Assembly: GCA_016218805.1 (NCBI GenBank) | Contig: JACRCW010000042.1 | Location: forward strand, 1 to 64,000 | Length of the DNA: 64,000 nt | Direction of reading: 5' to 3' | Source of the DNA: Deltaproteobacteria bacterium | GTDB lineage: Bacteria > Myxococcota > JACRCW01 | In this document: piece after piece, positions 1,831 through 50,526 of the stretch | Layout of the letters: every line of letters begins with the position of its first letter | Position numbering within the stretch: position 1 is the stretch's first letter | Made by a program: the position numbers and the translations under genes | The notes under the pieces: generated by a model | Databases searched by the model: none | Told to the model about the DNA's origin: nothing | Seen by the model: the letters and a program-made list of their open reading frames with translations, nothing else

Positions 1831-1921
1831 CCCGGTGATGCGGGCTCGGATGGTTCCGCGCTTGGTTCGTTGGTTTCTTTGGTTCGCACCCATTTCACCC
1901 GGCGCGCCCAACAACGTTTGC

Positions 1922-2968: not shown

Positions 2969-2971
2969 GAC

Positions 2972-4789: not shown

Positions 4790-5094
4790 GGACCCACCTC
4801 CCTGCGGCTTGGCGGCCGACCCCGATCGGGGGTGCCCTCCATAGGACGGCGGGCACGGTCCCGACAACGCCTGCGCCTCACGGGGTGCGGCCGCGACGGG
4901 GCGTGCCCCCCGCTTCTCCCGCGAGCGCGGACACACACCATGGGCTGCCGACGACACCGTGACCGGACGGAGGCGGGTGGCGGGAGTCAGCCGCCATGGG
5001 TCATGCGCCGGGTAGAAGCCGGGGGGCTTGGTAAGGGGAGGACGCGGTCAAAAACCAGCCGTCCCCGGCGGGTGACACCCGTTTCCCCACAAAA

Positions 5095-5115
5095 GTGTCT
5101 CACTACATGAGACAC
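5095..5115. promoter_or_regulatory. Perfect palindrome GTGTCTCA-CTACA-TGAGACAC, candidate repressor operator
   Basis: 8-bp inverted repeat with 5-nt spacer in an AT-richer patch of the divergent intergenic region upstream of the acyl-CoA ligase. Confidence 0.4.
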
Positions 5116-21200: not shown

Positions 21201-22940
21201 CCAGTCATCTCCGGTGGCGTTGGGGTTGGCGGTCCAGAAGAAGATGTTCCCGTTGGGAATGAGCGTGGTGTTGCTGGAGGTGGCGCTCAGCGTCAGCGCC
21301 GTGACGGCGGTCTCCACGTCCGTCACCGTGAAAGCAACCCAGCCGGAGAACGCAGTGTCCTCATTGATGGCCGGCGGGTTGGTCAGCGCCGTCATGGTGG
21401 GGAGGTCATTCACCGACACCACGGTGAGCACAAACGTGTCCGTGGCCGTCAGCCCACTGGGGTCCGTGACAGTCAGCGTGATGGTGGTGGTGCCAAACTG
21501 GTTGGCCGCCGGGGTGATGTTGACCGACCGGTTGTTGCCGAACCCGGAGAGCACGATGTTGCCGTTGGGCACCAGCGTGGTGTTGGAGGACGTGCCGGTC
21601 ACCGGCATGAACAACGTGGAGTTGTCCACGTCGCCAATGGTGAAGGCGATGGCGCCGGTGGCGGTGTCTTCGTTGGTGCTCTGGTCCGCCACGTTGGAGA
21701 TGGTGGGCGCGTCATTCACCGCGGTGACGGTCACGCTGAACGTGGTGGACGCGCTGGCGCCGTTGCCGTCCGTGCACGTCACGGTGATGGTCACCGGTCC
21801 GCCGTTCTGGTTGGTGGCGGGTGTGACCCGCACCCAGTCATCGCCGGTGGCGTTGGGGTTGGCCGTCCAGAAGGTGATGTTGGCCGGCAGGTTGGGGACG
21901 ATGGTGGTGTTGGAGGACGCGGTGCTGAGCGTGATGGACGTGGACGCCGTCTCCACGTCCGTGCAGTTGAAGCCGCGCCAGCCGGTGGTGGCGTCCTCGT
22001 TGATGGCGGGCGGGTTGGCCATGGGCACCGGGCTGATCACCGGGAAGTCATTCACCGAGTTCACGGTCAGGACAAATGTGTCCGTGGCCGTGGCGCCGCT
22101 GGCGTCCGTCACCGTGATGGTGATGGTGGTGGTGCCAAACTGGTTGGCCGCCGGCGTCAGGGTCACGGTGCGGTTGGCGCCTGCGCCGCCGAACACGATG
22201 TTGCCGTTGGGCACCAGCGTGGTGTCGGACGAGGTCCCGGTCACCACGAGCGAGCCGACCGCCGTCTCCGCGTCACCCACAGTGACGGCGATGGCCCCCG
22301 TGGCGGTGTCCTCGTTGGTGGACTGGTCCGCAATGTTGTTGATGGTGGGCGGCGTGTTGGTGGTGATGGTGATCCGCCAGCCCCCCGCCGTGCCGGTGTC
22401 CGCGCCGGCGTCATCCATGACGTACAGGCTCCACGTCCCGTTGGGCACAATCCCGGCAAACGTGGTGTTCAGCGACGGGAACTGCGTGCCGGCCGGTACG
22501 GGCGCGGGGGCAATGAACCCGTCACCCGCTCCGTAGTTGGCGGGGCGCCAGGTCCCGGCGGTGATGGCAGTGGCGTCCGGGAGGGCCAGGGCACCCGCGT
22601 CCGAGAACGTCACAGCGGCGTTGACGATGTCAATGGCGCCGCCGGCGTCCGACATGAGCAGGATGTTGGCCCCGCCCGGTCCCACCAGCAGGAGGTCAAT
22701 GTCATCCGGGTAAGTATGAGAAAGGTCGTTGATGGTGACGGTCACCCCCACCACCGTCCCGGGCATGCCCGCCGCGGTAATGTTGCTGGGATACGGCAGG
22801 CCCGATGTGTTGTCATTGATCAGGAACCCGCCCGCGGAATTGAAGGTGGCCACAGCAGCCCGCGCGGTGCCCTGCCCTGTCAGCAGGAACAACGCGCCGG
22901 CGCACATGGCCAGGAACCACTTCTTCATCGTCATCAACAT
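15285..22940 (-). CDS. Giant surface protein: P-domain-like N-terminus, ~20 Ig/cadherin-like (tandem-95) repeats, thrombospondin type-3 repeats, Ser/Gly linker, MYXO-CTERM
   Basis: Signal peptide MKKWFLAMC..ARA; HTYPDDIDLLLVGP..GTWSLYVMDD (proprotein-convertase P-domain-like); repeated VND[AL]PT..DQ..NED; DSDGDG/DNC repeats; GCGC-TM-RRRR tail; GGGGAG RBS. Confidence 0.92.
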   Translation of the reverse strand: MLMTMKKWFLAMCAGALFLLTGQGTARAAVATFNSAGGFLINDNTSGLPYPSNITAAGMPGTVVGVTVTINDLSHTYPDDIDLLLVGPGGANILLMSDAGGAIDIVNAAVTFSDAGALALPDATAITAGTWRPANYGAGDGFIAPAPVPAGTQFPSLNTTFAGIVPNGTWSLYVMDDAGADTGTAGGWRITITTNTPPTINNIADQSTNEDTATGAIAVTVGDAETAVGSLVVTGTSSDTTLVPNGNIVFGGAGANRTVTLTPAANQFGTTTITITVTDASGATATDTFVLTVNSVNDFPVISPVPMANPPAINEDATTGWRGFNCTDVETASTSITLSTASSNTTIVPNLPANITFWTANPNATGDDWVRVTPATNQNGGPVTITVTCTDGNGASASTTFSVTVTAVNDAPTISNVADQSTNEDTATGAIAFTIGDVDNSTLFMPVTGTSSNTTLVPNGNIVLSGFGNNRSVNITPAANQFGTTTITLTVTDPSGLTATDTFVLTVVSVNDLPTMTALTNPPAINEDTAFSGWVAFTVTDVETAVTALTLSATSSNTTLIPNGNIFFWTANPNATGDDWVRVSPAANQNGTAVITVTVADANGGTASRTFTVTVNAVNDAPTMTAIANQTVNEDTSTGALAITVGDPDGSLNTIVLTGTSSNTTLIPNANITFVQPSAAGAASVSVLPGANQFGGPVTITVTATDSTGLTATRTFTVQINGVNDLPTMTVIADQTVDEDSGVSANNLFTIGDVETPVGSLVLSGTSSNTTLIPNANITFAGGGALRAVRVNPALNQFGTATITVTVTDLNGGTATRSYLVTVNSVNDLPTITAIANQIVNEDTPTSALAFTVGDVETPAANLNLAATSDNTTLVPVSNIVFGGSGANRTVTVTPALNQSGTALITVIVSDANGGTGSRSFTLQVNAVADAPTISNIPNTSMNQDTSLTLNFTVGDAEDGPNPLTVTATSSNTTLLPNANIVLGGAGANRTIQMTPVVGQTGNTTITVTVRDTTALTATDTFVLTVTIVNFPPSFVTTVPDQTINEDSATAVLNFTVNDLMDAENLLVLSGTSSNTTVVPNASIVFTGPTAAGACTVRVTPAGNQNGPVTITISVTDTLGAVGTDSFVVNITPVNDAPTISDTTNQTVAEDNALNTNITVGDAEDAAAALNLTATSSNTALVPNGSLILAGSGATRTLVAIPTANASGTTTITLTVTDSGSLTATDTFVLTVTAVNDLPTVSDVTDQVVDEDVATAALDITVGDVETPANQLVMSGTSSDTTLVPNANIVFGGSGSARTVTVTPAANLSGTATITITVTDTATGTATDTFVLTVNSVNDLPTVAGLGNQSVPEDTTMGPVTFTIGDVETPAGTLTVSAVSSNQVLVPDAAITLGGAGASRTLTVVPVADAFGTTTLTVSVVDANGGTTTVPVVLTVTSVNDLPTISAISAQVTDEDVPTAAVGFTVGDLESPATQLVVAGTSDNQALVQDTDIAITGTGNVRSVTVVPAANASGTATITLTVADTDGGTAVTTFVLTVNAVNDLPVISDVADATTDEDTATAAMAFTVNDVETASASLVVTASSSNTTLVPDSNIALGGSGASRTVTVTPAANQNGTATITLTVADANGGTGTDTFVLTVTSVNDSPSVSAVTDQAIDEDGATSALTFTVGDTETPVTNLVVTADSSDPLVVPTSGIALGGTDANRTVLVTPAANQNGTVTITLTVTDELGATATTTFQVVIAAVNDAPTLLAVSDQTTSEDVVLGPITLTLLDVDTAADTLVLTGVSSDQAVLPDSGIEFGGTGFDRTLTLHPAANMSGTSTVTLTVSDGALTAQVTFTLTVTAVNDAPTITDITDITIDEDTTSQALTFTIGDLETAADQLTVTAESGDTTLVLDADLTLAGTGADRTLTVKPRADAFGTVTITVSATDPDGARSSDTFVVTVTPINDAPVATTESYTATEDTLLTVSALLGVLANDLDPDLDALTAHVVSDVAHGTLTLAADGSFTYQPSQDYSGADSFTYAANDGTVDSNTVTVDLTVTAVNDAPVAVDATVTLAEDATQAITLAGTDVDGDVLVYAVVTAPTHGTLSGTEPNLTYQPSAEYAGPDSLVFSVTDPSGATDQATVTIDVTPVNDTPVLVAPTPTADLAVAVGSPITFTVAATDVDGPSISYSVTGRPTTSSFSSTTGVFTWTPVLTEARAWPLTLVADDGTSQATRDITLTVTATDTDADGVPDALEPTLGTDPNNPDSDGDTIRDGEEVGDLANPRNTDNAGPIDALDTDSDGDTITDAQEAGDTDLATAPVDTDNDGKPDYIDDDSDGDTVADSVEAGDADPATAPVDTDTDGTPDFLDDDSDGDGVLDSADNCRLVSNAGQEDANGNNIGDACDSTSSSSSGGTASGSSGGAASSSGGGGSSGGTASSGAAGSSGGVASSGVTDSSGAAGSSGGVASSGVTDSSGAAGSSGGVASSGAAGSSGGVASSGAAGSSGGVTPGSSSGVVTPSSGGGGGGGEEEPGGGGCGCEATETRAPAALLGLALLVLVARRRRAS

Positions 22941-23221
22941 GTCAGTTCTCCCCGTAGAAAAATCGTGCCCCGCGCGCCCAGCGTCCGTGTTGTCGCGGAC
23001 TGTGACCCCAAGGGGGGCGGCTGGCGGCGCGGACCATGGCTCTTTTCCATGCCGGGGGGAAGCGGCCAATGACGCGCGTCACGCAGGTCAAACTTAGCTC
23101 ACGGAAGGTTCGCGGCGCAGCCAGCGCTTGCGTAGGGGTCAGCGTGTCCGTTGAAGCCCGCCCGGTGGTTGGCTACAGGCCGGCCCCCCGGTTCCCGCCG
23201 GGCCGTGGAGTCTGCCCGCTC

Positions 23222-29466: not shown

Positions 29467-30582
29467 TCAGAGGTTGAGGATCTGCAGCGCGGTGCGCAGT
29501 TCCCGGACCAGCATGTCCACTTCGCGCAGGTCTTCGTAGAGCTCCGGGGCGGGGCTGTCCGCGTACAGCACCATGCGCAGCTGGTCACCCTTGAAGACGG
29601 GCATCACCATCATTACCTGCGGGCGCGGCGGCCCCAGCGTCTCATGCATGAGCTGCCAGCCGGGGCCTTCCGGAATGGCGCCGTAATACGGGCGCTCCAC
29701 GCCGCGCGGCACCTCCAGTTCCATGAGCCCGTGGCGCACAAACCCGTGCGTGCCCACCACAAACGGCGGCCGCCCCAGCATGTCCAGCACCACCACGCGC
29801 GGGAAGAAGTTGCAAAGGAACGCCAGCACCACGTCCGCCATGGCGCGCACGCTGGTGGAGGTGAGGATCTCTTCGGCGGCCTGGCCCACGTCCGCAATGC
29901 GCCGCATGCCCGGGCGGATGGTGGTGACCGGAATCTGCGGCAGCGTGACCGCGCGCGGGATCACGCGGATGGCGGAGCCCACGGCGGGCATCACCGGCAT
30001 GGTGATGGCGCGTGGCGTCTTGTGGCGCACGTGCTGCAGCGGCGCATGGAAGCCCTGCGGGATGGTGACGGCGCGCGGCACGGCGGCGGCCAGGCGGGAG
30101 GCGCTCTGGGGGCGGCCAAAGCCCTGCGGCGGAGGCGGCGGCGCGGCGGGCGGGTAGATGCGCGCGCGCGCGGACTCCACGGCGGGCTCCGTGGCGACGT
30201 GCAGGACCACCCGCGCGCCCACGTGCTGCTGCATGGGGGCGTGGCCCAGCAGGCTGTATGGGTCATACAGGGCCACGGCCAGGCCGCCCTCCGGGAGCAT
30301 GGCAAAGGGCACCACGCGCCAGGGCTGCGCCACCTCCGCCGGCAGCACGCGGGACAGCATGCGCGGCGCGCTGATGACGTCACCGTCGTCCGCCAGGGGG
30401 AGCCCCACCGCGCGGGCAATGGCCTCCGCAATGGCCTCCGGCGTGAGCATGCCCAGCGTGACCAGCGTGTCCCCCAGCCAGCCGCCCGCGCGCGCCCACA
30501 CCGTGCGCGCGTGCGCCAGGCGCGTGGCGTCCAGGGCGCCCATGCGCATCAGGATGCTCTCAAGGTCCGGCGCGTTGGACAT
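29467..30582 (-). CDS. GspE/PilB N-terminal (MshEN/T2SSE_N) domain protein without ATPase
   Basis: LESILMRMG..LGDTLVTLGML..AIA, LPAEVAQPWRVVPF..LAVALYDP; GAF-like C-terminus (VMPVFKG..MVLYAD). Confidence 0.75.
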   Translation of the reverse strand: MSNAPDLESILMRMGALDATRLAHARTVWARAGGWLGDTLVTLGMLTPEAIAEAIARAVGLPLADDGDVISAPRMLSRVLPAEVAQPWRVVPFAMLPEGGLAVALYDPYSLLGHAPMQQHVGARVVLHVATEPAVESARARIYPPAAPPPPPQGFGRPQSASRLAAAVPRAVTIPQGFHAPLQHVRHKTPRAITMPVMPAVGSAIRVIPRAVTLPQIPVTTIRPGMRRIADVGQAAEEILTSTSVRAMADVVLAFLCNFFPRVVVLDMLGRPPFVVGTHGFVRHGLMELEVPRGVERPYYGAIPEGPGWQLMHETLGPPRPQVMMVMPVFKGDQLRMVLYADSPAPELYEDLREVDMLVRELRTALQILNL

Positions 30583-30594
30583 GGCGGCGCGGGC

Positions 30595-30933
30595 TCAGTG
30601 CGTCCGGTCCCCGCCGGGCGGGGCCACGTAACGCGCATCCGGCACGGCCGCGGCGGGCCCGGCGGGAACGGCCCGGTCATCCCGCAGCCGGTCGTGCGTG
30701 TCAGCGAGTTCCTGCGGCGTCAGCGCGCCGCGGTCCACCAGCGCGCGCGCCAGCACGCGCAGTGACTCGTCCTGCTGGCGGGCGCGCTCCCGGGTTTCCT
30801 CCAGCGCGGTGGCCAGGGCCGCCAGCTGTTCATCACACCGCCGCAGCCGCCCGTGGAGGTCCCACACCATGCCGCCCACGGCCGCCAGCCCCAGCACGAC
30901 GAGCACCACCACGACGGAAAGGATGACGTCCAC
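30595..30933 (-). CDS. Small membrane-anchored coiled-coil protein (start uncertain)
   Basis: One TM helix (VILSVVVVLVVLGLAAVG), then a coiled coil and LARALVDRGALTPQEL; co-oriented with the downstream gene. Confidence 0.6.
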   Translation of the reverse strand: MDVILSVVVVLVVLGLAAVGGMVWDLHGRLRRCDEQLAALATALEETRERARQQDESLRVLARALVDRGALTPQELADTHDRLRDDRAVPAGPAAAVPDARYVAPPGGDRTH

Positions 30934-31028
30934 GGCGGTGGCACCATGCAGGACGGACCACGGTCTTGGCAACCGGCCCGCGCGCCGCGGCGTTGAGCTG
31001 CGGCGCACCGGCTGGTAGCGCTGCGCGC

Positions 31029-31967
31029 ATGCCTCCCATCCCGCGCCCCGGCACCCACCCGCGCACGGTCACCACCACCACCGTGCGGGACACCCGCCCC
31101 GCCGTCACCAGCAGCACCGGCACCGCCAGCGTGGTGCGGGCACCGGATGGCCTGGAGATCAGCGCACCCGCGCCCCGCGGCCCGGTGTCCCTGTCCCGCG
31201 CGGAGGTGGTGGCCGCCGCGCGCCGCGCCGGCGTGCCGCAGCGCGTGCAGATTGGGCCCACTTGCGGTCTTTACGCGCTGGGCATGGTGATGGACGCGTG
31301 GCACGCGGCGGACCCGCGCCACCCCACGGTGGCCGTGCAGGACGCGGACTTCCACGGGATGGGCCGGAACCTCAACTACGCGCCCACCCGCAATGAGGGC
31401 ATGCTGGACTACGCACGGCAAGCCGGTTTCACCGCCGCGGGGGAGATGTTCACCGCCTCGCAGCTGGCGCAGGTGGCGTCACACTTCGGATACACGGCCA
31501 GCGTGCATGACCACTCCACGCTGGATGAGCTGTACCGTGTGCTGGACGGCGGCCACCCGGCCATTGTGGCCTTTGACGTGGACCACAACGGCAACCCAGG
31601 TGACTACGACGGGATGCGTGCCCACTACGCGGTGATTGAAGGGTACTTTGACGAGGGTGGCGAGCGCTTCCTGGTAGCGCGGCACGGGTGGGGCGTGGAG
31701 CAGGACCACGTGTGGCGCGCGGCGGACTTTGCCAGGTCCTGGCAGGCGCTGGAGTACACGGACTACTACGGCACGCCCGGTGACGGCGTGGTGCCCGCGC
31801 GTCCGGAGTTGGGGATGCCCGCCGCGGCGGAGCCGGGGCAGATGCACCTGCCCGACGTGGGCGGCGGCCGCGCCGGCATTGCGGAGAGCCTGGCGCTCAA
31901 GATTGTGGAGGTGGTTCCCAAGGGGGAGCAGCCCAAGGGCGGCACCGTTGTCACTGCACCGCGTTAG
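31029..31967 (+). CDS. C39-like cysteine protease, ACTMAP/C19orf54-like
   Basis: QIGPTCGLYAL (catalytic Cys), GFTAAGEMFT, AFDVDHNGNP..G.RAHYAVIEG (catalytic His). Confidence 0.8.
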   Translation: MPPIPRPGTHPRTVTTTTVRDTRPAVTSSTGTASVVRAPDGLEISAPAPRGPVSLSRAEVVAAARRAGVPQRVQIGPTCGLYALGMVMDAWHAADPRHPTVAVQDADFHGMGRNLNYAPTRNEGMLDYARQAGFTAAGEMFTASQLAQVASHFGYTASVHDHSTLDELYRVLDGGHPAIVAFDVDHNGNPGDYDGMRAHYAVIEGYFDEGGERFLVARHGWGVEQDHVWRAADFARSWQALEYTDYYGTPGDGVVPARPELGMPAAAEPGQMHLPDVGGGRAGIAESLALKIVEVVPKGEQPKGGTVVTAPR

Positions 31968-32943
31968 GCTCTCCGGTCTCCCGCGGGAGGCCTCCATCCG
32001 CTGGCGCACGCCGGCCGTGGCCACTTCCGGCGCGCGCTGTTCGGGCGTGGCGCGCTGGGGCGCGGGCCTGGTGTTCCGCGCGGAGGGTGCGGGCCTGGCG
32101 CCGGGCATCCACGTGGAGGAGAGCGGGCTCACGCGCGCGGTGCTGGCGGACAGCGCGGCTTGGCGGTGGGTCACGCCGCGGGTGACGGCGGGCGTGCTCA
32201 CCGCGGGCGGGCTGCCGCGTGATCGCGTGGGGGGGCACGTGGAGGCGGTGGCGTTCCGGGTGGAAGGCCGGGACCCGGTGGTGGTGCCCGGGCACGCGTG
32301 GGCGGTCCGTGACGACGGCAAAGCAGCCGTGGTGGCGGACGCGCGCGGGGCGCAGGTCCACCGCGTGTGGCTTCAGACGGGCGCCGTGGAACCGCTGTGC
32401 GCGCTGGCCGGTGAGGTGGACCCGCTGAGTCCGCCGTGGGTGGGCCTGGACGCCGCGGGAGTGGTGCTGCTGGCGCACGCGCCCACCGCGCGCGGCGAGG
32501 TCACGCTGGAATCCGTGACGCTGGAGAGCGGCGAGCGCCGCGTGCTGCACGGGCCGGTGCCGGGGCCCGCGTGGGTCACCGCCGCGGCAGCCGGCGCGCG
32601 GGTGGTGGTGTTTGAGATGCGGCTGGGGGATGCGCCTGTGTTCCGCATCCTGGCGGTGGACGGTGGGAGGCCGGCGCGCACGCTGGCCGAGCTGCCGCGC
32701 GCGCAGCCGTGGGGCGAACCGGTTCTCGTGGATGAGCAATGCCTGGTGGCCCCGCTGTCTCTGGCGTCCCATGCGGAGGCCACGCACGGTCCGGTGGAGC
32801 TGGTGGCGCTGCGGCTGGACGGCGGGACGCCGGTGCCGCTCACGCGTGAGGGCTCCATCCGCGGGACGCTGCGCAATCAGCGCGGCACGCTGGTGCTGGA
32901 AGGCGGCCGTCAGCTGGGCGAAGTGCTGCTCACGCGTCCCTGA
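31948..32943 (+). CDS. Hypothetical beta-strand-rich (propeller-like) protein; start uncertain
   Basis: Long GC3-rich ORF overlapping the protease stop; TTG start candidate; patterns such as AVRDDGKAAVV and LDGGTPVPLT. Confidence 0.55.
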   Translation: MSLHRVRLSGLPREASIRWRTPAVATSGARCSGVARWGAGLVFRAEGAGLAPGIHVEESGLTRAVLADSAAWRWVTPRVTAGVLTAGGLPRDRVGGHVEAVAFRVEGRDPVVVPGHAWAVRDDGKAAVVADARGAQVHRVWLQTGAVEPLCALAGEVDPLSPPWVGLDAAGVVLLAHAPTARGEVTLESVTLESGERRVLHGPVPGPAWVTAAAAGARVVVFEMRLGDAPVFRILAVDGGRPARTLAELPRAQPWGEPVLVDEQCLVAPLSLASHAEATHGPVELVALRLDGGTPVPLTREGSIRGTLRNQRGTLVLEGGRQLGEVLLTRP

Positions 32944-33880
32944 GCGTGCGGGCGATCTCCAGGCCCACGCGCCGCGCCTCAGCGACGTCACTGCCCGGCA
33001 GCGTCACCGCGCCCACCGCCGGGTGCCCGCCGCCGCCGTACTTCTCACACAGCCGGGAGATGTCATGCCGCCGCTTGTGCGGTGACCAGGGGTTGCTGCC
33101 CACGCTCACCTTGGCGCGCCGCGCCGACGCGGTGACCCCCACGCTGTAGGCCGCGTCCGGGAACAGGTAGTAGCCAATGAACTTGTTGAACCCGTCCATG
33201 TTCCACTCGGTCAGGTCAAAGTGGACCACTTCGCCCTCGCAGCGCGCGCGCTGGCGCACGCGCTTGACCGCTTCCAGGTGCTCCCGCTGGATGGGCTCAA
33301 ACCGCGCGCGCACGTCCGGTGCGGACGCCACAGCCAGTCCGCCGGCATCCAACCGCGGGATCAGCGAAGTGCAGAACGCGTCATCCGAGACTTCAATCAC
33401 CGTCATCAGCTGCAGCGCCGGTTCCAGCAGTTCCACGGCGACACCGGGGGACTCAAACCGCGCCGAGTCAATGATGTCCGCCCAGCGCACCAGCTCAGCC
33501 AGGTCCTCCCAGCGGATGCCGAACTTCTCCTGCGCCACCGCCGTGATGAGCTTGGTGCAGGAGGTACAGGCCGGGTCATAGAACTTGCGGCCGGAGCGGT
33601 CCGCATCAAAGTGCGCGCGGTCCTCCGCGTTGGCAAACGCGCTCTGGTGGTGATCAAACCACCAGGTAAGCGCGGGCGAGGTGGTGTACTTGAAGTCGAG
33701 GATCGCGTTCTCGTCGCCGTCCAATTCCGCGGTGCCGGGGACGTGGCCCTTCTGGTGGGCCAGTGCGCGGAATTCGATCTGCGCGTTCTTCTGGCCGATG
33801 GCGCGGTACAACCGGGTGAACAACACGGCGGACGTGCATCCGTCGAAACACCTGCCGTGGTAACCCACCCTCACCCTCAT
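32930..33880 (-). CDS. DHH family phosphoesterase
   Basis: YHGRCFDG, AILDF, WWFDHHQS, ADIIDSA, GGGHPAVG. Confidence 0.92.
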   Translation of the reverse strand: MRVRVGYHGRCFDGCTSAVLFTRLYRAIGQKNAQIEFRALAHQKGHVPGTAELDGDENAILDFKYTTSPALTWWFDHHQSAFANAEDRAHFDADRSGRKFYDPACTSCTKLITAVAQEKFGIRWEDLAELVRWADIIDSARFESPGVAVELLEPALQLMTVIEVSDDAFCTSLIPRLDAGGLAVASAPDVRARFEPIQREHLEAVKRVRQRARCEGEVVHFDLTEWNMDGFNKFIGYYLFPDAAYSVGVTASARRAKVSVGSNPWSPHKRRHDISRLCEKYGGGGHPAVGAVTLPGSDVAEARRVGLEIARTLRDA

Positions 33881-34043: not shown

Positions 34044-36674
34044 ATGGGCGAGAACGCGGCCAGCCAGGCACTCGTGAAGGTGCCGCAGACGGGCGACGCC
34101 ATCACGGCGCGCGGCGTTCCCGACCGGACGACGCTGCCGGTCAGCGCCTGTGCCGCGCGCTACCTGGATCCCATCCACTATGACCCCGTGGACGTGGAGC
34201 GCATCCGCGAACTGTCCCGCAAGGGCACGGTGGTCTACACGCACCGCTCCGCAAACTGGGTGGACATCCTGCTGCTGCAGCGGCAGCTGCCCAAGCATGA
34301 CCTGCCGCGCGCGGAGTTTGTGGCGGGTTTCAACACGCGCATGTTCCACCCCATCTGGACGTGGTTCCGCCGTGACCATGAGCCCGGCGCCCCCGCGGAC
34401 CCGGTGGCCCGCGAGGAGTGGCGCCTGTTCCGCACGCTCACTGAGCAGAAGAGCGCGCTGGTGTTTCTCAAGCACCCCTCCACGCTGGTGAACCCGCGCC
34501 CGGCGCAACAGGCGCACTACGCGCGCGCCATCATCCGCGCGCAGCGGGAGAGCAGCCGCCCCATCTTCCTGGTTCCGCAGGTCATCATCTGGATCCACCG
34601 CCCGGGGCACTTCCGGCCCACGCTGTCAGACGTGGTCTTTGGCACCTCTGACAGTCCCGGCGCCATGCGCGCACTGGGCATTGCGTGGCTGCTGTACCGC
34701 TGGGCCAAGATCCGCGTGGCGGAGGCGGTCAACGTCCAGGAGTTCCTGGAGCGTTTCAAGGAACTGTCTGACGACGCGCTGGCCCGCAAGCTGCGCTTCC
34801 TGCTCAACTTTGGCCTGGGGCGCGAGCAGCACATCCTCAACGGCCCGCCGCTCAAGACACACGCACGCATGCGCGAGGAAACGCTGCGCGACCCGCGGCT
34901 CAACAAGGCCATTGCGCAGATTTCCCAGGCGGAGAACCGGCCCGTGGCCGCGCTGCTGGACCGGGCGCGCAAGCAATACGACGAGATTGCCTCCAAGTTT
35001 GACGTGGACGCGATGAGCGTTCTGGATTGGCTGCTGCGCGTGGTGTGGAACCGCATCTACGACGGCGTGGAAGTGGACCCCGCGGACATCCGCAAGCTCA
35101 AGGAGACCGCCCGCCGCGGCCCGCTGGTGCTGCTGCCCTGCCACCGCAGCCACGTGGACTACCTGGTGCTGGGACAGGTGCTCTACTGGAACGGGATGAT
35201 GCCGCCGCTGGTGGCCGCGGGCCTCAACCTCTCCTTCTGGCCGCTGGGCCCCATGTTCCGCCGCGGCGGTGCGTACTTCATCCGGCGCACCTTCAAGGGT
35301 GACGCGCTGTACCCGCACATGGTGCGTACGTACATCAAACACATGCTGCGCGAAGGCTTCTACCAGGAGTTCTTCATTGAGGGCGGGCGCAGCCGCACGG
35401 GGAAGACGCTGCCACCCAAGCTGGGCATGCTGTCCATCGTCGTGGATGCGTTCCTGGAGGGCGTGCAGAAGGACGTGGCGGTCATCCCGGTGCACATTGG
35501 GTATGAGAAGATTGTGGAGAGCCGCTCCTACGCGCGCGAACTGGCCGGCGGCGCCAAGGAGAAGGAGTCCATCAAGGGGCTGCTCTCCGCCGGCAGCGTC
35601 CTGCGCCACAAGTACGGCCGCGTGTACGTCACCTTTGATGAGCCCATCATGATGCGGGAGTTCCTGGTTGACCGCGGACTGCAGCCGGAGGCGGAGAACG
35701 AACCGCTGCGGGTCAAGGCGGCAGTGCGGTCACTGGGCCACCGCGTGGTGTACGGCATCAACCGCAGCGCCGTGGTCACCCCCACCGCCGTGGCCGCGCT
35801 GGGCCTGCTGGGCCACGTGCGGCGCGGACTGCCGCACTCCGTGCTGCTGGGGTATTCGCAGCGGATCCTGGAGCACGTGCTGCTGGTCAGCGGGAACAAC
35901 GCGCGCATCTCCCCCGTCCTGCAACAGGACCTGGAAGCCGCCCTGCGCGAAGCCATGACCCGCCTGGCCGAGGAACGCCTGGTGGAAATCAGCAGCGCCA
36001 ACGGCGAGGTGTTCTACCGCCCCATCGACAGCCGCCGCGTGGCGCTGGATTACTACAAGAACAATATCGTCCATTTCTTTGTGCCGGATGCCATTGTGGC
36101 CGCGTCCCTGCGCAGCCTCCGCCCCGCCCCCGGCGAAGCCGTCCCGCTGGACCGCGTCAAGGAACGCGCCCGCCTGCTGTCACGCCTGCTCAAGATGGAG
36201 TTCCATTTCCGCAAGGGACCGTTTGATGCGCTGTTTGATGAGGCGCTCATGCGCTCCGTCAACAAAGGGTACCTGTCCGTGGCGGATGGGTGCGTGGCGC
36301 TGGGACGGGATCCGTTGAGTGATCAGCTCGCGCGGTTTGTCGCCAACCTGCTCACCAACTTCCTGGAGGGGTACGCCATTGCGTTTGAACACGTGCGCGC
36401 ACTGGTCACCCACTCCGTGGCCAAACGCGAGGTCATCTCCACCGTGCTGGACCGCTCCCGCGCGTCCTTCCTCGCTGGCGAAATGGTGCACGGGGAGAGC
36501 GTCAATAAGGCCGTTATCGAAAACGTCGTGGACCTGCTCATTGATCTTGGCGTGCTCAACACGTCCGGCGAGGGGTCCCAGACCACCGTGTCACCCGGCG
36601 ACAACTTTGCCACGCGGATGGCGGACCTGGTCCAGGAAAGTCACCTGTTCCTGGACCAGAGCCCGCGTGACTGA
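34044..36674 (+). CDS. plsB: Glycerol-3-phosphate acyltransferase PlsB-like
   Basis: CHRSHVDY (HxxxxD), AAGLNL, GAYFIRRTF, FFIEGGRSRTGK, IPVHIGYEKI. Confidence 0.9.
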   Translation: MGENAASQALVKVPQTGDAITARGVPDRTTLPVSACAARYLDPIHYDPVDVERIRELSRKGTVVYTHRSANWVDILLLQRQLPKHDLPRAEFVAGFNTRMFHPIWTWFRRDHEPGAPADPVAREEWRLFRTLTEQKSALVFLKHPSTLVNPRPAQQAHYARAIIRAQRESSRPIFLVPQVIIWIHRPGHFRPTLSDVVFGTSDSPGAMRALGIAWLLYRWAKIRVAEAVNVQEFLERFKELSDDALARKLRFLLNFGLGREQHILNGPPLKTHARMREETLRDPRLNKAIAQISQAENRPVAALLDRARKQYDEIASKFDVDAMSVLDWLLRVVWNRIYDGVEVDPADIRKLKETARRGPLVLLPCHRSHVDYLVLGQVLYWNGMMPPLVAAGLNLSFWPLGPMFRRGGAYFIRRTFKGDALYPHMVRTYIKHMLREGFYQEFFIEGGRSRTGKTLPPKLGMLSIVVDAFLEGVQKDVAVIPVHIGYEKIVESRSYARELAGGAKEKESIKGLLSAGSVLRHKYGRVYVTFDEPIMMREFLVDRGLQPEAENEPLRVKAAVRSLGHRVVYGINRSAVVTPTAVAALGLLGHVRRGLPHSVLLGYSQRILEHVLLVSGNNARISPVLQQDLEAALREAMTRLAEERLVEISSANGEVFYRPIDSRRVALDYYKNNIVHFFVPDAIVAASLRSLRPAPGEAVPLDRVKERARLLSRLLKMEFHFRKGPFDALFDEALMRSVNKGYLSVADGCVALGRDPLSDQLARFVANLLTNFLEGYAIAFEHVRALVTHSVAKREVISTVLDRSRASFLAGEMVHGESVNKAVIENVVDLLIDLGVLNTSGEGSQTTVSPGDNFATRMADLVQESHLFLDQSPRD

Positions 36675-36686
36675 ATCGGAGGTCCC

Positions 36687-39600
36687 ATGCAACGCGCACC
36701 CAGGGTTGACCCGCGGTACTCGCCGGCGGACACGCCCCCCCACCCGGCGACTGGCGTCGCCGACCTCCCCCCGCAAGCGGGGGGAGGTGTTGTTGCCGCA
36801 TTGCTCCTCCTGGCGCTGGCTGCCTGCCCCGCACCGAAAGACCCCCCAGCCGCACCCGCCGGGCCGCCCACCGGCCCCCTCGCCGTCCTCGCCATAGGAC
36901 CCCGCGGCGAAGTCACCGGCCCCGTCCAGGTGTTTGCCACCTTTGACAAGCCGGTGACACGGCTGGGCGAGATGGATGACGCGCGCGCCCACGAGTTTCT
37001 CCGCGTCACCCCGGAGAAACCCGGCCAGTACCGCTTCCTGGGTACCCAGACCGTCATCTTTGAATTCACCGGCGACGCGCCCCGCTCCAGCGAGTTCACC
37101 GCCGAAGTGCCCCTCACCGCCCGCTCCGTTGACGGATCCGGCCCCGCCCAGACCGCCCGCTCCCAGTTCACCACCCTGCGCCTGGCCGTTACCGACACCA
37201 GCCCGGGTAAGGGATACAAACAGGCACCGTCCCGCCCCGCCATCCTGCTCACGTTCAACCAACCGGTGGACCCCGCGGACGTCACGCGCCACACCTCGTT
37301 CCGCCTCCCCGCCCCGCACGCCCCCGTCACCGCCACCTGCACCCCCGCCCCGCGTGACGCCACACCCAACAGCCTCACGTGCACCGCCACCGCGGACATC
37401 GCACCGTCCACGGCCGTGGACCTGGTGGTCGCCGCGGCGCTCCACGGTGCGGAGGGCGCCCTGGGCATGGCCGCCGAGTTTGCCCTGCCCTTTGCCATCC
37501 ACGGCCCCCCCGGCGTGGAACGCGTCCTGTGTGATGACGGGTGCAAACCGGAGTACGGCGCCCGCATCAGTTTCCTCACGCCGGTGATCCCCAAGAAGGC
37601 CGCGCAGTTCCTCGTGGTGGAACCCGCCATAGACATGACGCGCTTCTCCGGCGACTACCCCTCCACCTCGCTGTACTTGGGACAGCTCAAGCCGTCTTCG
37701 GCCTACCAGGTCACCATCAGGGCGGGCCTGGTGGATGAGTTTGGCCAGGCCACGCAGGGGGACCAGTCCTTCCAGTTCACCACCGCCGCGGCCACGCCGC
37801 GCGCCACCGTGCCCCGCGGATTCCTCACCATGGAACCGGGCGCTCCCGTCCTGCGCGTGCACTCCACCAATGCGCACCGCGCCACGCTGCGCGCGTGGAA
37901 GCTCTCTGACGCGGAGGCACCCGTGCTTGCCCGCGCCTTTGACCGCGGCGGCGGGGACGTCAAACGCCGCCCGCATGACGCCGCTAAAGACATTGATTTG
38001 AAGTACGTACCCGACCAGCGAACGCTGACCGAGATCCCCCTGTCCGAGTGGCTCCCCGGCGGGCGCGGCCTGATGGCGTACAGCCTGGTCTTCAAGGAGG
38101 TGTTCTCCTGGCGCGATCACCCGCTGGCCGTGGACGGGTTCATCCAGGGCACCTCCATGGGCGTGTCCGTCAAGGCGTGGAACAACGGCGTGCTGGTGTG
38201 GGTCACCGGCCTGGCGGACGGGAAACCCGTGGCGGGCGCCACCGTCACCGTCACGGACCCAACCGGCTTGCGCCTGTGGAACGGGACCACGGATGAATCC
38301 GGGCTGGCGTACGCGGCCGGTATTGACGTGGCCCCGGCGCGTGAAGCGTGGGCGGTGGTGCGCCACGACGACGACGTGGCGCTGGGCAGCGCGGAGTTTG
38401 ATGACGGCCTGTCCGTGTGGGACCTGGGCGGCCAGGCGGCGTGGGGCGAGGACAACCAGTTGGTGGGCCTGGTGTTCACCGACCGCGGCGTGTACCGCCC
38501 GGGCGAACCGGTGCACGTGAAGGTCCTGGCGCGCACCCTCTCCGGCGGCGAGCTGGGCATCCCGCGTGAGACCAGCGCGAAGCTGGAGGTGATGGGCCCC
38601 ACCGGCGACAACGTCCTCACGCGCAACGTGAAGCTCTCCGCCCTGGGCACGGCGAACCTCACGTTCAACCTGGACAAGGGCTCCAAGCTGGGGAGCTACA
38701 ACCTGCACTTCGGTTATGGTGACGACGGACAGGGACTGTATGCCAGCGTGCTGGTGGAGGAGTTCAAGGCGCCGGATTTCAAGGTGGAGGTCCTGCCGGC
38801 GCGCCCGCAGATGATCATGGGCGAGTCCGTGCCCGTGACCGCGCGCGCGGCGTACCTGTTTGGTGCACCGCTGTCCGAGGCGGCCGTCAAGTACACCGTC
38901 ACGCTGTCCCCCAGCTATTTCCAGCCGCCCGGAGCGGAGGGCTACACGTTCAACGACGACACGCGCTGGCTGTCCGATGGGTACATCAGCGCGCAGCAGC
39001 TTGCGTCCGCCGAGGCGAAAGCCGGCAAGGACGGCACTCTCAGCATCAACGTGGAGGCCAAGGGCGAACCGCCGGGCGGACCGGGCAGCGCCTCCGTGGA
39101 GGTCACCGCCACCGACCCATCCGGCCAGGCCATCACGGGATCCACCAGCATCACGGTGCACCCCGGTGAGCACTACCTGGGGCTGCGCACGCGGGAGAGC
39201 CTGCTCAAGTCCGGCGAGGCGTTTCCCGTGGAGGTGGTGGCACTCAAGCCGGATGGCGCGCCCGCCACGGGCAGCGCCACGGTGGTGCTGAAGCGGCGCG
39301 AATACCGTTCCATGCGGCAGGCCGGCCTCGGCGAGGCGACCGAACCGCTGCAGGCGTTTGAGGACAAGGAGGTCGCCCGCTGCGAGGTGAGCGGGCTGGG
39401 GAAGGAGCCCAAGGCGTGTTCGCTCACGCCCACCGCGGCGGGCCTGTTCCTGCTCAGCGTGTCAGGTAAGGACTCCAAAGGACGGGAGTTGTTCGCGGCG
39501 CGGGTGGTCTGGGTGGCCGGGCCGGGCGAGGCACCGTGGGCGTCCGACGAGTCCTTGGCGGTGAAGCTGGTGCCGGATCGTAAGTCCTACAAGCCCGGTG

Positions 39601-42323
39601 ACGTGGCCAAGGTGCTGGTGCAGAACCCGTGGCCGGGTGCGCGCGCGCTGGTGACCCTGGAGCGCGGCGGCGTGTTGTCCCAGAAGGTGGTCACGTTGGA
39701 CGGCAGCGCCCCGGTGCTGGAGGTGCCGGTGGAGGAGAAGTACGTCCCCAACGTGTGGCTGGGCGTGGTGCTGGTGCGCGGCCGCACCGCGGCGCCGCAA
39801 CCCGGCAAGCCGGACCGTGACAAGCCGGCCGTGCGCGGCGGTTACGCGCTGATTCCCGTGGACACGGGCACGCGCCGGCTGGCGGTGGCGCTCAGCACGG
39901 ACGCCCCTGTGTATGGCCCGCGTGACGAGGTGAAAGCCACCGTGAAGGTGGCGGACCAGGCCGGTGCGCCGGCTGCCGCGGAGGTGGCGCTGTTTGTGGT
40001 GGACGAAAGCGTGCTGCAGCTCACCGGCTTCCGCACGCCGGACCCGGTGCCGCTGCTCTATGCGCAGCGCGGTATTTCGGTGCGCACCGGGGACAGCCGC
40101 GTTCACGTGGTGGACGCGCGGTCCTACGGCGAAAAGGGCGAGGAGGAGGGTGGCGGCGGCCTGGGCGCATTGCTGGGTGATGAGGCCGTGCGCGGCCGGT
40201 TCCTCACGTGCGCGTACTTCAATCCCGCCATCAAGGTGCCCGCATCCGGCGTGGCGGAGGTGAGCTTCAAACTCCCGGACAACCTCACCAGCTTCCGCCT
40301 CATGGCGCTGGCCATTGGCGAAGGCCACCGCGTAGGAAGTGCAGAAGGCAGCCTGCGCGTGCGCAAGCCGCTGATGCTGCGGGCGGCGCAGCCGCGGTTG
40401 CTGCGCGTGGGGGACGACGCGCAGGTGGGCGTGGTCATTGTCAATGCGTCAGACAGCGCCGGTCCGGTGGACCTTGCCGTGGAGAACCGCACGCCGGAAC
40501 TGGTGAAGCTGGGACCCGCCGCGGCCAGCGTGCAGACAGCCGCGGGTGCCAGCGTGCCGTTCCGCGTTCCCGTCACCGCGTTGAAGTCCGGGACCGCGGT
40601 GCTGCGGTTTGCGGGGAAGCTGGGCGCAACGGGTGATGGTCTTGAGCTGCGCTTCCCCGTGGCAGACCCGGTCCCGCTGCTCCACGACGGAACGTACGGC
40701 ACGGTGGAGGGCGGCAAGAAGGTGGACGTCCCGCTGGGCCTGCCCGCCGGTGCGCGCGACGACGTGGGCGGCCTCACCGTCACGCTGGCCACCACGCTGC
40801 TCACGCAGCTGTCCGGGTCCGCGCTGTTCCTGGCCACCTACCCGTACGACTGCGCGGAACAGACCGCGAGCAAGCTCCTGCCGTACGTGGAACTGGCATC
40901 ACTGCGGCAGGTGTTTGACCCGGCCGCGGCCACACCGGAGGCGCTGCAGGCAAAAGCGAATGCCGCGGTGCAGAAGCTGCTGGCGTTCCAGAACGACGAC
41001 GGCGGGACGGGCTACTGGGCCGGCCACACTTCCAACCCGTGGCTCACCGCGTGGTCCACGCTGGCGCTGGCCCGTGCGCAGGCCGCCGGCTTCAAGGTGC
41101 CCGCGCAGTCACTGCACCGCGCACAGGCGTACCTCAAGGACATGCTGGCCAAATGGCCCGCCGGTGTCCGTGATGCATGGGGCGATGAGGCGCTGGCGTT
41201 TGTGGTGGACGTACTGGCGACGTTGAAGGACCCGGTGCCGTCCTTTGCCAGCACGCTGTTTGACCGCCGCGCCGCCATGCCGTTGGAAGCACGCGCCATG
41301 CTGCTGCACGCCATGGCGCTCGCCGGCAATGCGCGCCAGGTGAAACCACTGGCGGATGACCTGCTGGCGCACGTGCACCAGTCCGCCAAGGGCGCCACGG
41401 TGCAGTCGTCGTCAACTGATCGGCGCTATTGGACCTCACCCACGCGCGAGCACGCGCTGGTGCTCCGCGCGCTGGTGGCCGCGGGCGCGGACCAGGCCGT
41501 GTTGGACAAGCTGGCGGTGGGGCTAGTGGCAGCGCAGCAACGCGGCACGTACCGGACCACGCAGGAGGCGTCCTGGGCCATGCTGGCACTGCGCGACTAC
41601 CAGGACGCGCTGCAGACAGCACCCATGAAGGCGGAGGTCACCGCGAGCGCGGGCACCACGGACGTCGTCAAGGCCGCGTTTGACAAGGTGTCGTTTGACA
41701 CGGTCGTCGGCACCGCGCCCGTTGCAGCGGTGAAGGCGGGGACGCTGTCCATCGGAGCGGAAGGCAGCGGTACCGTGCACTGGGGCGCCACCGTGTCCCA
41801 CGCGCCGTCCGCCATTCCTTCCGTTCCCGTTGAGCGCGGCCTGTTCATCCAGCGCGTGCTCAAGTGGAACGGACAACCGGTAAAGGACCGCGTGAAGGCC
41901 GGGCAGCTGCTGCACCTGGTGGTGGAGCTGAGCACCCCGGCGGACCGGCATGACGTCGTTGTGGACGTGCCGGTGCCCGCAGGGATGGAGCTGGTGAATG
42001 TCCGCTTTTCAACGTCCGAGACCGTGCCTCCCGTGGCCGGCGGCGAGCCGCGTGGTGACGAGGACTGCGAGAGCGAGGAGTGCGCCGAGGCGTGGCGGCC
42101 CGACCCGACACTGCAGGGACCGTTTGATCACGTGGAGCTGCGGGATGACCGGCTGCTCCTGTTTGCGTCCTCATTGCCGCGCGGGGTGCACCGGTACGTG
42201 GCGGGGGTTCGCAGCGTGACGCCGGGAACGTACCGGGTTCCGCCCGCCAAAGCGGAGGGAATGTACGAACCCGAAGTGGTGGGGCAGACTCCGGGGAGCA
42301 CTTTCACGGTGGAGGCGCCATGA
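36687..42323 (+). CDS. Bacterial alpha-2-macroglobulin family lipoprotein
   Basis: Lipobox LAAC; FTDRGVYRPGE, KLPDNLTSFR, thioester YPYDCAEQ, C-terminal PPAKAEGMYEPE. Confidence 0.95.
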   Translation: MQRAPRVDPRYSPADTPPHPATGVADLPPQAGGGVVAALLLLALAACPAPKDPPAAPAGPPTGPLAVLAIGPRGEVTGPVQVFATFDKPVTRLGEMDDARAHEFLRVTPEKPGQYRFLGTQTVIFEFTGDAPRSSEFTAEVPLTARSVDGSGPAQTARSQFTTLRLAVTDTSPGKGYKQAPSRPAILLTFNQPVDPADVTRHTSFRLPAPHAPVTATCTPAPRDATPNSLTCTATADIAPSTAVDLVVAAALHGAEGALGMAAEFALPFAIHGPPGVERVLCDDGCKPEYGARISFLTPVIPKKAAQFLVVEPAIDMTRFSGDYPSTSLYLGQLKPSSAYQVTIRAGLVDEFGQATQGDQSFQFTTAAATPRATVPRGFLTMEPGAPVLRVHSTNAHRATLRAWKLSDAEAPVLARAFDRGGGDVKRRPHDAAKDIDLKYVPDQRTLTEIPLSEWLPGGRGLMAYSLVFKEVFSWRDHPLAVDGFIQGTSMGVSVKAWNNGVLVWVTGLADGKPVAGATVTVTDPTGLRLWNGTTDESGLAYAAGIDVAPAREAWAVVRHDDDVALGSAEFDDGLSVWDLGGQAAWGEDNQLVGLVFTDRGVYRPGEPVHVKVLARTLSGGELGIPRETSAKLEVMGPTGDNVLTRNVKLSALGTANLTFNLDKGSKLGSYNLHFGYGDDGQGLYASVLVEEFKAPDFKVEVLPARPQMIMGESVPVTARAAYLFGAPLSEAAVKYTVTLSPSYFQPPGAEGYTFNDDTRWLSDGYISAQQLASAEAKAGKDGTLSINVEAKGEPPGGPGSASVEVTATDPSGQAITGSTSITVHPGEHYLGLRTRESLLKSGEAFPVEVVALKPDGAPATGSATVVLKRREYRSMRQAGLGEATEPLQAFEDKEVARCEVSGLGKEPKACSLTPTAAGLFLLSVSGKDSKGRELFAARVVWVAGPGEAPWASDESLAVKLVPDRKSYKPGDVAKVLVQNPWPGARALVTLERGGVLSQKVVTLDGSAPVLEVPVEEKYVPNVWLGVVLVRGRTAAPQPGKPDRDKPAVRGGYALIPVDTGTRRLAVALSTDAPVYGPRDEVKATVKVADQAGAPAAAEVALFVVDESVLQLTGFRTPDPVPLLYAQRGISVRTGDSRVHVVDARSYGEKGEEEGGGGLGALLGDEAVRGRFLTCAYFNPAIKVPASGVAEVSFKLPDNLTSFRLMALAIGEGHRVGSAEGSLRVRKPLMLRAAQPRLLRVGDDAQVGVVIVNASDSAGPVDLAVENRTPELVKLGPAAASVQTAAGASVPFRVPVTALKSGTAVLRFAGKLGATGDGLELRFPVADPVPLLHDGTYGTVEGGKKVDVPLGLPAGARDDVGGLTVTLATTLLTQLSGSALFLATYPYDCAEQTASKLLPYVELASLRQVFDPAAATPEALQAKANAAVQKLLAFQNDDGGTGYWAGHTSNPWLTAWSTLALARAQAAGFKVPAQSLHRAQAYLKDMLAKWPAGVRDAWGDEALAFVVDVLATLKDPVPSFASTLFDRRAAMPLEARAMLLHAMALAGNARQVKPLADDLLAHVHQSAKGATVQSSSTDRRYWTSPTREHALVLRALVAAGADQAVLDKLAVGLVAAQQRGTYRTTQEASWAMLALRDYQDALQTAPMKAEVTASAGTTDVVKAAFDKVSFDTVVGTAPVAAVKAGTLSIGAEGSGTVHWGATVSHAPSAIPSVPVERGLFIQRVLKWNGQPVKDRVKAGQLLHLVVELSTPADRHDVVVDVPVPAGMELVNVRFSTSETVPPVAGGEPRGDEDCESEECAEAWRPDPTLQGPFDHVELRDDRLLLFASSLPRGVHRYVAGVRSVTPGTYRVPPAKAEGMYEPEVVGQTPGSTFTVEAP
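36735..36790. repeat. Double-hairpin palindromic element (REP/RPE-like) inside the 5' end of the A2M ORF
   Basis: CCCCCCCACC-CGGCGA-CTGGCG-TCGCCG-ACCTCCCCCCGC-AA-GCGGGGGGAGGT; translates as PPHPATGVADLPPQAGGG. Confidence 0.65.

Positions 42324-43578: not shown

Positions 43579-50526
<6,948 letters not shown>

Follow-up and report, generated by a model that had tools for sequence, protein, structure and literature searches.

A myxobacterial ACTMAP-like cysteine peptidase and the overlapping gene of its predicted β-propeller partner

We analyzed a bacterial homologue of the eukaryotic actin-maturation protease ACTMAP (C19orf54), an enzyme that removes N-acetyl-Met/Cys from actin. The homologue is encoded in 64,000 nucleotides of DNA from an uncultured groundwater myxobacterium (Deltaproteobacteria bacterium, assembly GCA_016218805.1, contig JACRCW010000042.1, positions 1 to 64,000), a stretch that we call the window. 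The gene occupies positions 31029..31967 on the forward strand, where an open reading frame (ORF) without internal stops encodes 312 amino acids followed by a TAG stop codon. Its product is almost certainly a genuine member of the ACTMAP-like family (PF21646) and an intact, probably active papain-fold cysteine peptidase. Directly downstream, and overlapping it, lies a gene for a predicted β-propeller protein without signal peptide that recurs at this place in related genomes, and we tentatively read the two products as an intracellular processing protease working together with its propeller.

The hmmscan analysis matched residues 70–206 (31236..31646, +) to the Pfam model PF21646, ACTMAP-like_C, with 70.4 bits (cut-off 27, E=2.3e-19), whereas the generic Peptidase_C39_2 model PF13529 scored 29.4 bits (threshold 24), 41 bits lower, and BtrH_N reached 14.1 bits. 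A phmmer search of 1.84 billion representatives returned 254 proteins at E≤1e-3, of which 81 reached E≤1e-10 and 19 reached E≤1e-30. Named eukaryotic ACTMAPs were matched directly, with E values from 8e-11 to 9e-6, and seven of the ten weaker matches that we looked up carried eukaryotic names, comprising two beetle 'actin maturation protease' entries, Haemonchus, a rotifer, an Aplysia 'C19orf54 homolog', Capsaspora and a chytrid; vertebrate orthologues were obtained by a reverse word-index search from the Aplysia protein. A first-pass annotation of the same DNA, made from the letters alone, had proposed ACTMAP homology and suggested setting the ACTMAP-like family against Peptidase_C39. The profile scores decide this comparison for PF21646, and together with the direct phmmer matches, the alignment and the rooted tree described below they uphold the proposal.

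Each of the motifs on which that proposal was built could be located in the 312-residue ORF: QIGPTCGLYAL (residues 74–84, nucleotides 31248–31280), ARQAGFTAAGEMFT (residues 129–142, nucleotides 31413–31454), GHPAIVAFDVDHNGNP (residues 175–190, nucleotides 31551–31598), GMRAHYAVIEG (residues 195–205, nucleotides 31611–31643) and ADFARSWQAL (residues 232–241, nucleotides 31722–31751), all on the forward strand. The order proposed for them in the first-pass annotation was borne out by a MAFFT alignment (A1) of five bacterial proteins, including the window protein, with seven named eukaryotic ACTMAP-family proteins (Aplysia, Capsaspora, chytrid, beetle, Anolis, pig and orangutan). The invariant columns of A1 are Q74, G76, P77, C79, G80, A83, M86, A129, G138, D183, P190, A198, H199 and G205, and in a second alignment (A2) all 139 relatives, without exception, carry Cys79 and His199. 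Cys79, the predicted nucleophile in QxGPxCG (codon 31263..31265, +), pairs with the cysteine of 'GPQCG' at residue 132 of orangutan ACTMAP, and PMC13367750 gives C132 as the catalytic nucleophile of human ACTMAP. Together with His199, the predicted general base in AH(Y/W) (codon 31623..31625, +), it likely forms the catalytic pair, with Gln74 as the likely oxyanion-hole residue. The signature motifs also separate the family from its clan: QxG.xCG was present in 15/16 proteins of the window clade and 25/26 named eukaryotes, GE[ML][FYW] in 15/16 and 23/26, and AH[WYF] in 16/16 and 26/26, respectively, whereas none of the three occurred in an outgroup of 18 C39_2 domains from genomes of the same phylum (0/18 each).

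A quick tree of 149 rows, made up of 16 of the 120 listed close relatives, 86 representatives with a match spanning most of the domain, 26 named eukaryotes, three non-myxobacterial bacteria and 18 outgroup rows, supplied the 70 rows of a careful, outgroup-rooted maximum-likelihood tree. In the latter, 62 family rows were split from eight C39_2 outgroup rows with a support of 95/89, placing the window protein with the eukaryotic ACTMAPs and apart from the C39_2 peptidases of its own phylum. The clustering with generic C39-like peptidases that the first-pass annotation had named as fatal to its claim was not observed. The window protein fell within a myxobacterial clade (96/92), while opisthokont ACTMAPs formed one clade (100/89) with a Diplonema fusion protein adjoining it (94/88). 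The window clade and all eukaryotic rows belong to a set of 56 rows (96/87) that has a polytomy as its internal backbone; the VgrG-fused protein P0156 and a few other rows lie outside this set with weaker support. No specific sister relationship links the window clade to animal ACTMAP. In the free tree three protist groups stood apart from the opisthokonts, namely P0172 (Picozoa), P0211 (Diplonema) and P0138, which falls into one 90% cluster with a Pedinella protein; five further rows were called protist by clade membership only. In an approximately unbiased test a single eukaryotic clade was not rejected (p=0.282, for a group named after the first tree), and multiple transfers can therefore not be claimed. 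The earlier suggestion that the protein is relevant to the origin of the family thus stands in so far as eukaryotic ACTMAPs fall inside a largely myxobacterial radiation, albeit one with a polytomous backbone.

The closest eukaryotic relatives found by phmmer were protist proteins, P0131, which is probably of protist origin (44% identity, E=1.5e-37), and P0138 (44%). This closeness extends beyond the Pfam model into the carboxy-terminal extension of the peptidase (residues 253–312; 31785..31964, +), which was modelled with high confidence (predicted local distance difference test, pLDDT, >90). A hidden Markov model (HMM) of residues 252–312 matched P0131 (2.2e-6), P0138 (2.2e-5) and the Pedinella protein P0405 (2.4e-5), and it matched no animal ACTMAP at E<1. 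Some of the protist proteins are fusions: P0211/P0402 of Diplonema papillatum joins a GNAT (NAA80-like) acetyltransferase to an ACTMAP-like domain, and the metagenomic P0145 (990 residues) is a GNAT–ACTMAP fusion with two ACTMAP-like stretches. These fusions parallel NAA80 and ACTMAP, which are separate enzymes in animals.

The AlphaFold2 model of the peptidase, built on a 139-sequence alignment, reached a mean pLDDT of 91.7 and a predicted template-modelling score (pTM) of 0.83, with poor order at residues 1–30 only. The best solved structural match was the putative C39-like peptidase 3ERV of Bacillus anthracis (17% identity); a sequence search of the PDB gave nothing below E=0.4, and none of the PDB sequence or structure searches returned a solved structure of the ACTMAP family. 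Could the protein nevertheless be a generic C39-like peptidase whose likeness to ACTMAP goes no further than the clan? The NCBI names of close homologues, 'C39 family peptidase' or 'hypothetical', the PF13529 score above its threshold and the C39-like best structural match all point that way. This is contradicted by the 41-bit advantage of PF21646, the direct ACTMAP matches, the signature motifs and the 95/89 split, and we regard the idea as hardly credible. NCBIfam models gave nothing meaningful for the peptidase. A bacteriocin-processing Peptidase C39 of a peptidase-containing ATP-binding cassette (ABC) transporter was likewise rejected, the protein being a stand-alone chain of 312 residues without an ABC transporter neighbour and PF03412 being absent from the matches at E≤10.

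At the amino terminus, a longer reading from TTG 30966, 63 nucleotides upstream of ATG 31029, is possible, and we preferred the ATG because 'MP[VIL]' opens most of the 40 printed relatives. Residues 1–33 (31029..31127, +) form a disordered Pro/Thr/Ser-rich tail without signal peptide according to pLDDT and a hydrophobicity scan. In agreement with what the first-pass annotation had noted, the mean pLDDT of residues 1–30 was 50–58, and the most hydrophobic 12-residue stretch within the first 45 residues reached 0.94 on the Kyte–Doolittle scale, compared with at least 2.2 in the three of 115 relatives that have a Sec-like amino terminus; the other 111 relatives lack one, as does the window protein (120 relatives were listed, and five without the Cys motif were dropped). 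The tail is followed by the clade-specific motif APDG(M/L)E(I)xAP at residues 38–47 (31140..31169, +), which was modelled as a β-hairpin before the catalytic domain (strands 35–37 and 43–45) and recurs in the amino termini of most of the 40 printed relatives. The layout common to close relatives, encoded at 31029–31220 in the window, consists of 'MP[VIL]' with a short, possibly amphipathic stretch, a variable Ser/Thr/Ala/Pro-rich linker and the 'APDGME(I)NAP' hairpin. Tail and hairpin could serve as a partner-docking motif or as a pro-segment.

The downstream gene encodes a β-propeller protein of 331 residues without signal peptide (31948..32943, +) and overlaps the peptidase gene by 20 nucleotides. 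We set its start at TTG 31948 because homologues open with 'M-x-H-R-L-x4-L-P'; the database call starts at GTG 32017. PF21646 was detected in 32 of the 401 genomes sampled from the phylum, or 22 of the 316 that are of high quality, and in none of 14 control genomes, and the whole-genome scan found a single copy in the genome under study. When the partner and its paralogue were each used as query against whole genomes, 11 and 12 of the 401 gave a match, 14 in union, to which a local phmmer search added one more (G026). In each of these 15 genomes a partner lies on the same contig as the PF21646 match and adjoins it, the only match away from such a peptidase being the orphan paralogue described below. 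Outside family f11, 19 genomes are PF21646-positive and 15 of them have the partner, compared with none of the 13 within f11. A homologue stood immediately downstream of the peptidase in 10 of 21 inspected loci; in the Archangiaceae/Myxococcaceae-type clade the downstream genes vary between loci.

No Pfam family matched the partner at E≤1, apart from a faint PD40 match in one homologue, a word-index search returned only its own record, and its alignment showed no hydrophobic amino terminus. The AlphaFold2 model is an all-β propeller (pLDDT 90.1, pTM 0.88) whose structure search was headed by S9-peptidase, DPPIV_N and PD40 propellers with TM-scores of 0.72–0.75; Foldseek likewise returned generic propellers, with rows including 4ax4, 9s6b and 3o4i. 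Only Pro, Asp, Gly and Leu occupy the invariant columns of the family; neither Ser nor His nor Cys is conserved, and the protein therefore looks like a binding module and not an enzyme. A complex prediction for peptidase residues 30–312 with the partner returned no verdict (score 0.05), in a run that left out residues 1–29 with the conserved 'MP..' tail. A Rosetta-stone link was sought through P0131, in which a PQQ-like propeller precedes the ACTMAP-like domain, and was dropped, as BLASTP and hhalign comparisons of the partner family with P0131 and P0405 gave nothing.

An orphan paralogue of the partner lies elsewhere in the same genome (G000:C145:36009-36965, minus strand, corresponding to L064 1468–2541, minus strand), far from any ACTMAP-like gene, and is 33% identical to the window partner and 46% to the partner from genome G011. 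It follows directly downstream of a DJ-1/PfpI-family gene (L064 2433–2948, minus strand, 171.6 bits). Members of that family are cysteine-nucleophile hydrolases, so that both paralogous propellers of this genome come after a gene of this kind.

We found no match to VipB/TssC, VgrG or Hcp, core proteins of the type VI secretion system (T6SS), in the genome, a metagenome-assembled genome (MAG) of 92% completeness, and VipB was present in one of ten other genomes with the peptidase–propeller pair. Within the window clade neither a neighbour nor a fusion of the VgrG, PAAR, Hcp or adaptor type was seen. More distant relatives differ in this respect, as the metagenomic proteins P0153 (847 residues) and P0156 (908 residues) are evolved VgrG spikes carrying a carboxy-terminal ACTMAP-like/C39_2 domain with 40–42% identity. 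A metagenome scan with P0156 yielded 66 VgrG loci, among which an ACTMAP-like ORF occurred only in L180 and L181, the same sequence twice. In L180 this ORF, cut at its 5' end (1–798, +), is followed by an uncharacterized 180-residue ORF, which may be an immunity gene, and then by a vgrG–PAAR–DUF4123–effector island (vgrG 1460–3844, PAAR 3866–4246, DUF4123 4248–5111); the partner HMM found nothing in the 66 loci. Read from these gene arrangements, the ACTMAP-like domain also serves as a putative T6SS warhead elsewhere.

With respect to a substrate, two PF00022 matches were detected in the genome, both MreB (464 and 468 bits on MreB_Mbl), which excludes eukaryote-type actin as the enzyme's own substrate in the assembled 92% of the genome. 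The amino termini of the MreB proteins are ordinary and thus give no hint of MreB as substrate. A profilin search found no match in this genome, nor did it find one in any control genome. Animal ACTMAP (C19orf54/UPF0692) is described as an actin maturation protease (PMC13367750, PMC11735805, PMC13557074) that binds PFN1/2 (PMC13367750, PMC11735805).

Among the explanations that we weighed for the pair, we lean, with rather less than even confidence in the mechanism as a whole, towards a processing protease that acts inside the cell in concert with the propeller. The peptidase, lacking a signal peptide, would stay in the cytoplasm and would be translated from a two-gene operon together with its S9/PD40-type cytoplasmic propeller. 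The pair would then trim one end of a single specific protein, or of a small number of them, inside the cell, the trimmed residue most likely being a blocked amino-terminal one by analogy with ACTMAP, and the propeller, presumed to associate physically with the peptidase, would act as substrate gate or adaptor as in S9 peptidases; in this organism the substrate could not be eukaryote-type actin. We favour this reading because the peptidase is conserved and non-polymorphic, shows neither an export signal nor a link to secretion, and has a partner resembling the S9 gating domain. An endogenous role in amino-terminal processing, one of the two roles that the first-pass annotation had put forward, is compatible with the missing signal peptide and the conserved operon with a cytoplasmic propeller. 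Several observations weigh against a processing protease with an obligatory propeller. No substrate was identified and nothing indicated amino-terminal specificity; no partner was found next to four close peptidase relatives (G060, G067, G075 and G111); across the same loci the partner is 21–37% identical compared with 53–66% for the peptidase, and hence evolves much faster; four loci hold a form of about 230 residues that lacks roughly 100 residues after the amino-terminal strand; and there is the orphan paralogue in the same genome. Moreover, as the genome is a MAG of the completeness given above, a secretion system may have escaped detection.

Fast evolution, shortening and patchy presence are met more often in inhibitors or immunity proteins than in obligatory subunits, and the main competing explanation, which we consider unlikely but nearer to our preferred one than any other, is that the peptidase is potentially harmful, either as a toxin for delivery into other cells or as a protease in need of silencing in the producer, with the propeller as its dedicated cytoplasmic inhibitor. 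Such a pair would follow the logic of T6SS and contact-dependent inhibition (CDI) effector–immunity pairs or of staphopain–staphostatin operons. The position of the partner, directly downstream, overlapping, signal-less and diverging faster than the peptidase, would suit it, as would the shortening or loss of the partner in some loci, the orphan paralogue, the patchy distribution over 32 of 401 genomes, the VgrG-fused relatives P0153 and P0156, and the ACTMAP-like ORF followed by a 180-residue ORF in a vgrG–PAAR–DUF4123 island. However, T6SS core genes went unmatched in this genome and VipB was found in one of the ten other pair genomes, no signal peptide, PAAR, Rhs, VgrG or other trafficking domain occurs in the window clade, and a peptidase that keeps 53–66% identity across several families of the phylum is not polymorphic. 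Furthermore, no propeller follows the T6SS-linked relative, the partner HMM was blank in the 66 VgrG loci, and P0156 is not part of the crown group to which the window clade belongs. The 44% identity to protist ACTMAP-like domains, carboxy-terminal extension included, together with the lack of an own actin beyond MreB, so that any enzyme aimed at actin would need to work beyond its own cell, raises the different idea, the other role named in the first-pass annotation, of an effector delivered into amoebae, fungi or other eukaryotes to trim actin amino termini by means of a substrate recognition in common with protist and animal ACTMAPs. This we judge improbable, as it has no positive support in the window clade, finds neither a signal peptide nor secretion-system linkage nor a trafficking domain, would leave the tightly coupled cytoplasmic partner unexpected, and meets no polyproline run of the kind seen in A1 at the amino terminus of animal ACTMAP. 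Still more doubtful is that the propeller itself is the substrate, its amino terminus being matured by the peptidase as a co-translated neighbour: the first 12 or so partner residues (M-x-H-R-L-x4-L-P) are kept even in the forms missing the next 100 or so, but they run into the first β-strand (residues 14–20, pLDDT >90), which could close the propeller and explain conservation without cleavage, and the partner amino terminus is basic, unlike the acidic substrates of ACTMAP. A more ambitious extension of the processing protease, to which we give little credence, though somewhat more than to the effector idea, is a bacterial amino-terminus maturation system in which a propeller-gated cysteine aminopeptidase of the ACTMAP type would remove a formyl- or acetyl-blocked initiator residue from a substrate of its own, and in which the myxobacterial lineage would be the source of eukaryotic ACTMAP; the latter part is suggested because, in the outgroup-rooted tree, eukaryotic ACTMAPs nest among sequences that come from bacterial assemblies where their origin is known.

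A pattern scan with one genome per species gave 45 loci, all of them from MAGs. By record title, 29 belong to Myxococcota, Myxococcales, Archangiaceae, Myxococcaceae or Polyangium, eight to 'Deltaproteobacteria', two to 'Pseudomonadota bacterium', one to 'bacterium', one to Terriglobia and four to Akkermansia. The ACTMAP-like genes outside Myxococcota, in the Akkermansia MAGs (L106, L108–L110) and the Terriglobia MAG (L105), are divergent, being 26–31% identical to the window protein, and those of Akkermansia sit on a very long branch.

The immediate genomic surroundings of the pair comprise genes for a spermidine-synthase-like protein, an MshEN protein, PlsB and an alpha-2-macroglobulin; because these contig neighbours are ordinary bacterial genes, the peptidase gene is not eukaryotic contamination. 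The G+C content at the peptidase region is 72–74%, the same as that of its flanks. Scanning 30500–33300 revealed no promoter or terminator, and PADLOC matched neither peptidase nor partner nor three of the neighbours. In 20 fetched loci, none of the spermidine-synthase-like, MshEN, small transmembrane, PlsB and alpha-2-macroglobulin genes was conserved beside the peptidase. The DNA of the locus was present in four sequencing runs of one groundwater metagenome study, with no RNA run among those listed. Further along the window, the PlsB-type glycerol-3-phosphate acyltransferase gene (34044–36674, +) directly precedes that of a bacterial alpha-2-macroglobulin of 1878 residues, a broad protease trap with MG2, bait region, TED and bMG10 domains (36687–42323, +). 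A hybrid histidine kinase of 2315 residues with a GAF domain, HisKA/HATPase, three receiver stretches and 13–14 HAMP domains in tandem is encoded at 43579–50526 (+). On the minus strand, at 15285–23069, lies the gene of a probable giant surface adhesin, a protein of 2594 residues in which 13 Big_9 stretches are joined by cadherin-like and thrombospondin type 3 repeats.

The family assignment as such is not new, since the Pfam model already covers bacterial members, and what appears to be new is that the propeller partner is fixed and that the family is concentrated in myxobacteria. Full-text literature searches found no paper describing prokaryotic members; the text by Haahr and colleagues of 2022 in Science, which reportedly describes animal ACTMAP as the actin maturation protease, was outside their reach. 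A 2025 review states that actin maturation by ACTMAP and NAA80 is confined to animals (PMC11735805). Our data delineate a coherent, mostly myxobacterial ACTMAP branch with intact catalytic machinery that reaches 44% identity with protist enzymes and has, in one clade, a fixed propeller, and this branch offers a tractable model for the substrate recognition and chemistry of a poorly understood protease family. It also renders testable the question whether the eukaryotic actin-maturation protease came from Myxococcota-like bacteria, and the relatives elsewhere that may serve as T6SS warheads offer another lead.

Several known systems can be set beside the pair. The propeller domains of S9 peptidases (prolyl oligopeptidase, DPP-IV and acylaminoacyl peptidase) are the closest to the predicted fold of the partner, and in these enzymes the propeller gates the catalytic domain. 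They combine propeller and α/β-hydrolase in one chain, whereas here the propeller is a separate polypeptide beside a papain-fold cysteine peptidase and the association is proposed from gene order only. Staphopain–staphostatin operons, represented among the PDB matches by 1pxv, likewise place the gene of a signal-less all-β protein after that of a papain-fold protease; the staphopains are secreted proteins that carry pro-regions, and staphostatins are small β-barrels, not propellers. The C39_2 peptidases, represented by 3ERV, differ in that the ACTMAP signature motifs are absent from the 18 same-phylum proteins and in lying on the opposite side of the tree. The VgrG-fused P0153 and P0156 carry the same peptidase domain on a T6SS spike, while the window protein is stand-alone and comes from a genome in which no T6SS core genes were found. 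The protist ACTMAP-like proteins (P0211/P0402, P0145, P0172 and the long proteins of Pedinella type, P0138/P0405 and P0131) belong to the same crown group, and P0131 and P0138 share with the window protein 44% identity and the carboxy-terminal extension; unlike it they are multidomain, and their amino-terminal regions show no similarity to the bacterial propeller. From animal ACTMAP the window protein is set apart by an identity of 22–27%, the coupling to a propeller gene, a host without eukaryote-type actin, and an amino terminus that is Pro/Thr-rich without the polyproline run of the animal proteins in A1. It shares with animal ACTMAP the Pfam family, the catalytic Cys (at C132) and His, the motifs QxGPxCG, GEMF, D-x-D...P and AH(W/Y), a predicted cytosolic location and a disordered, proline-containing amino terminus.

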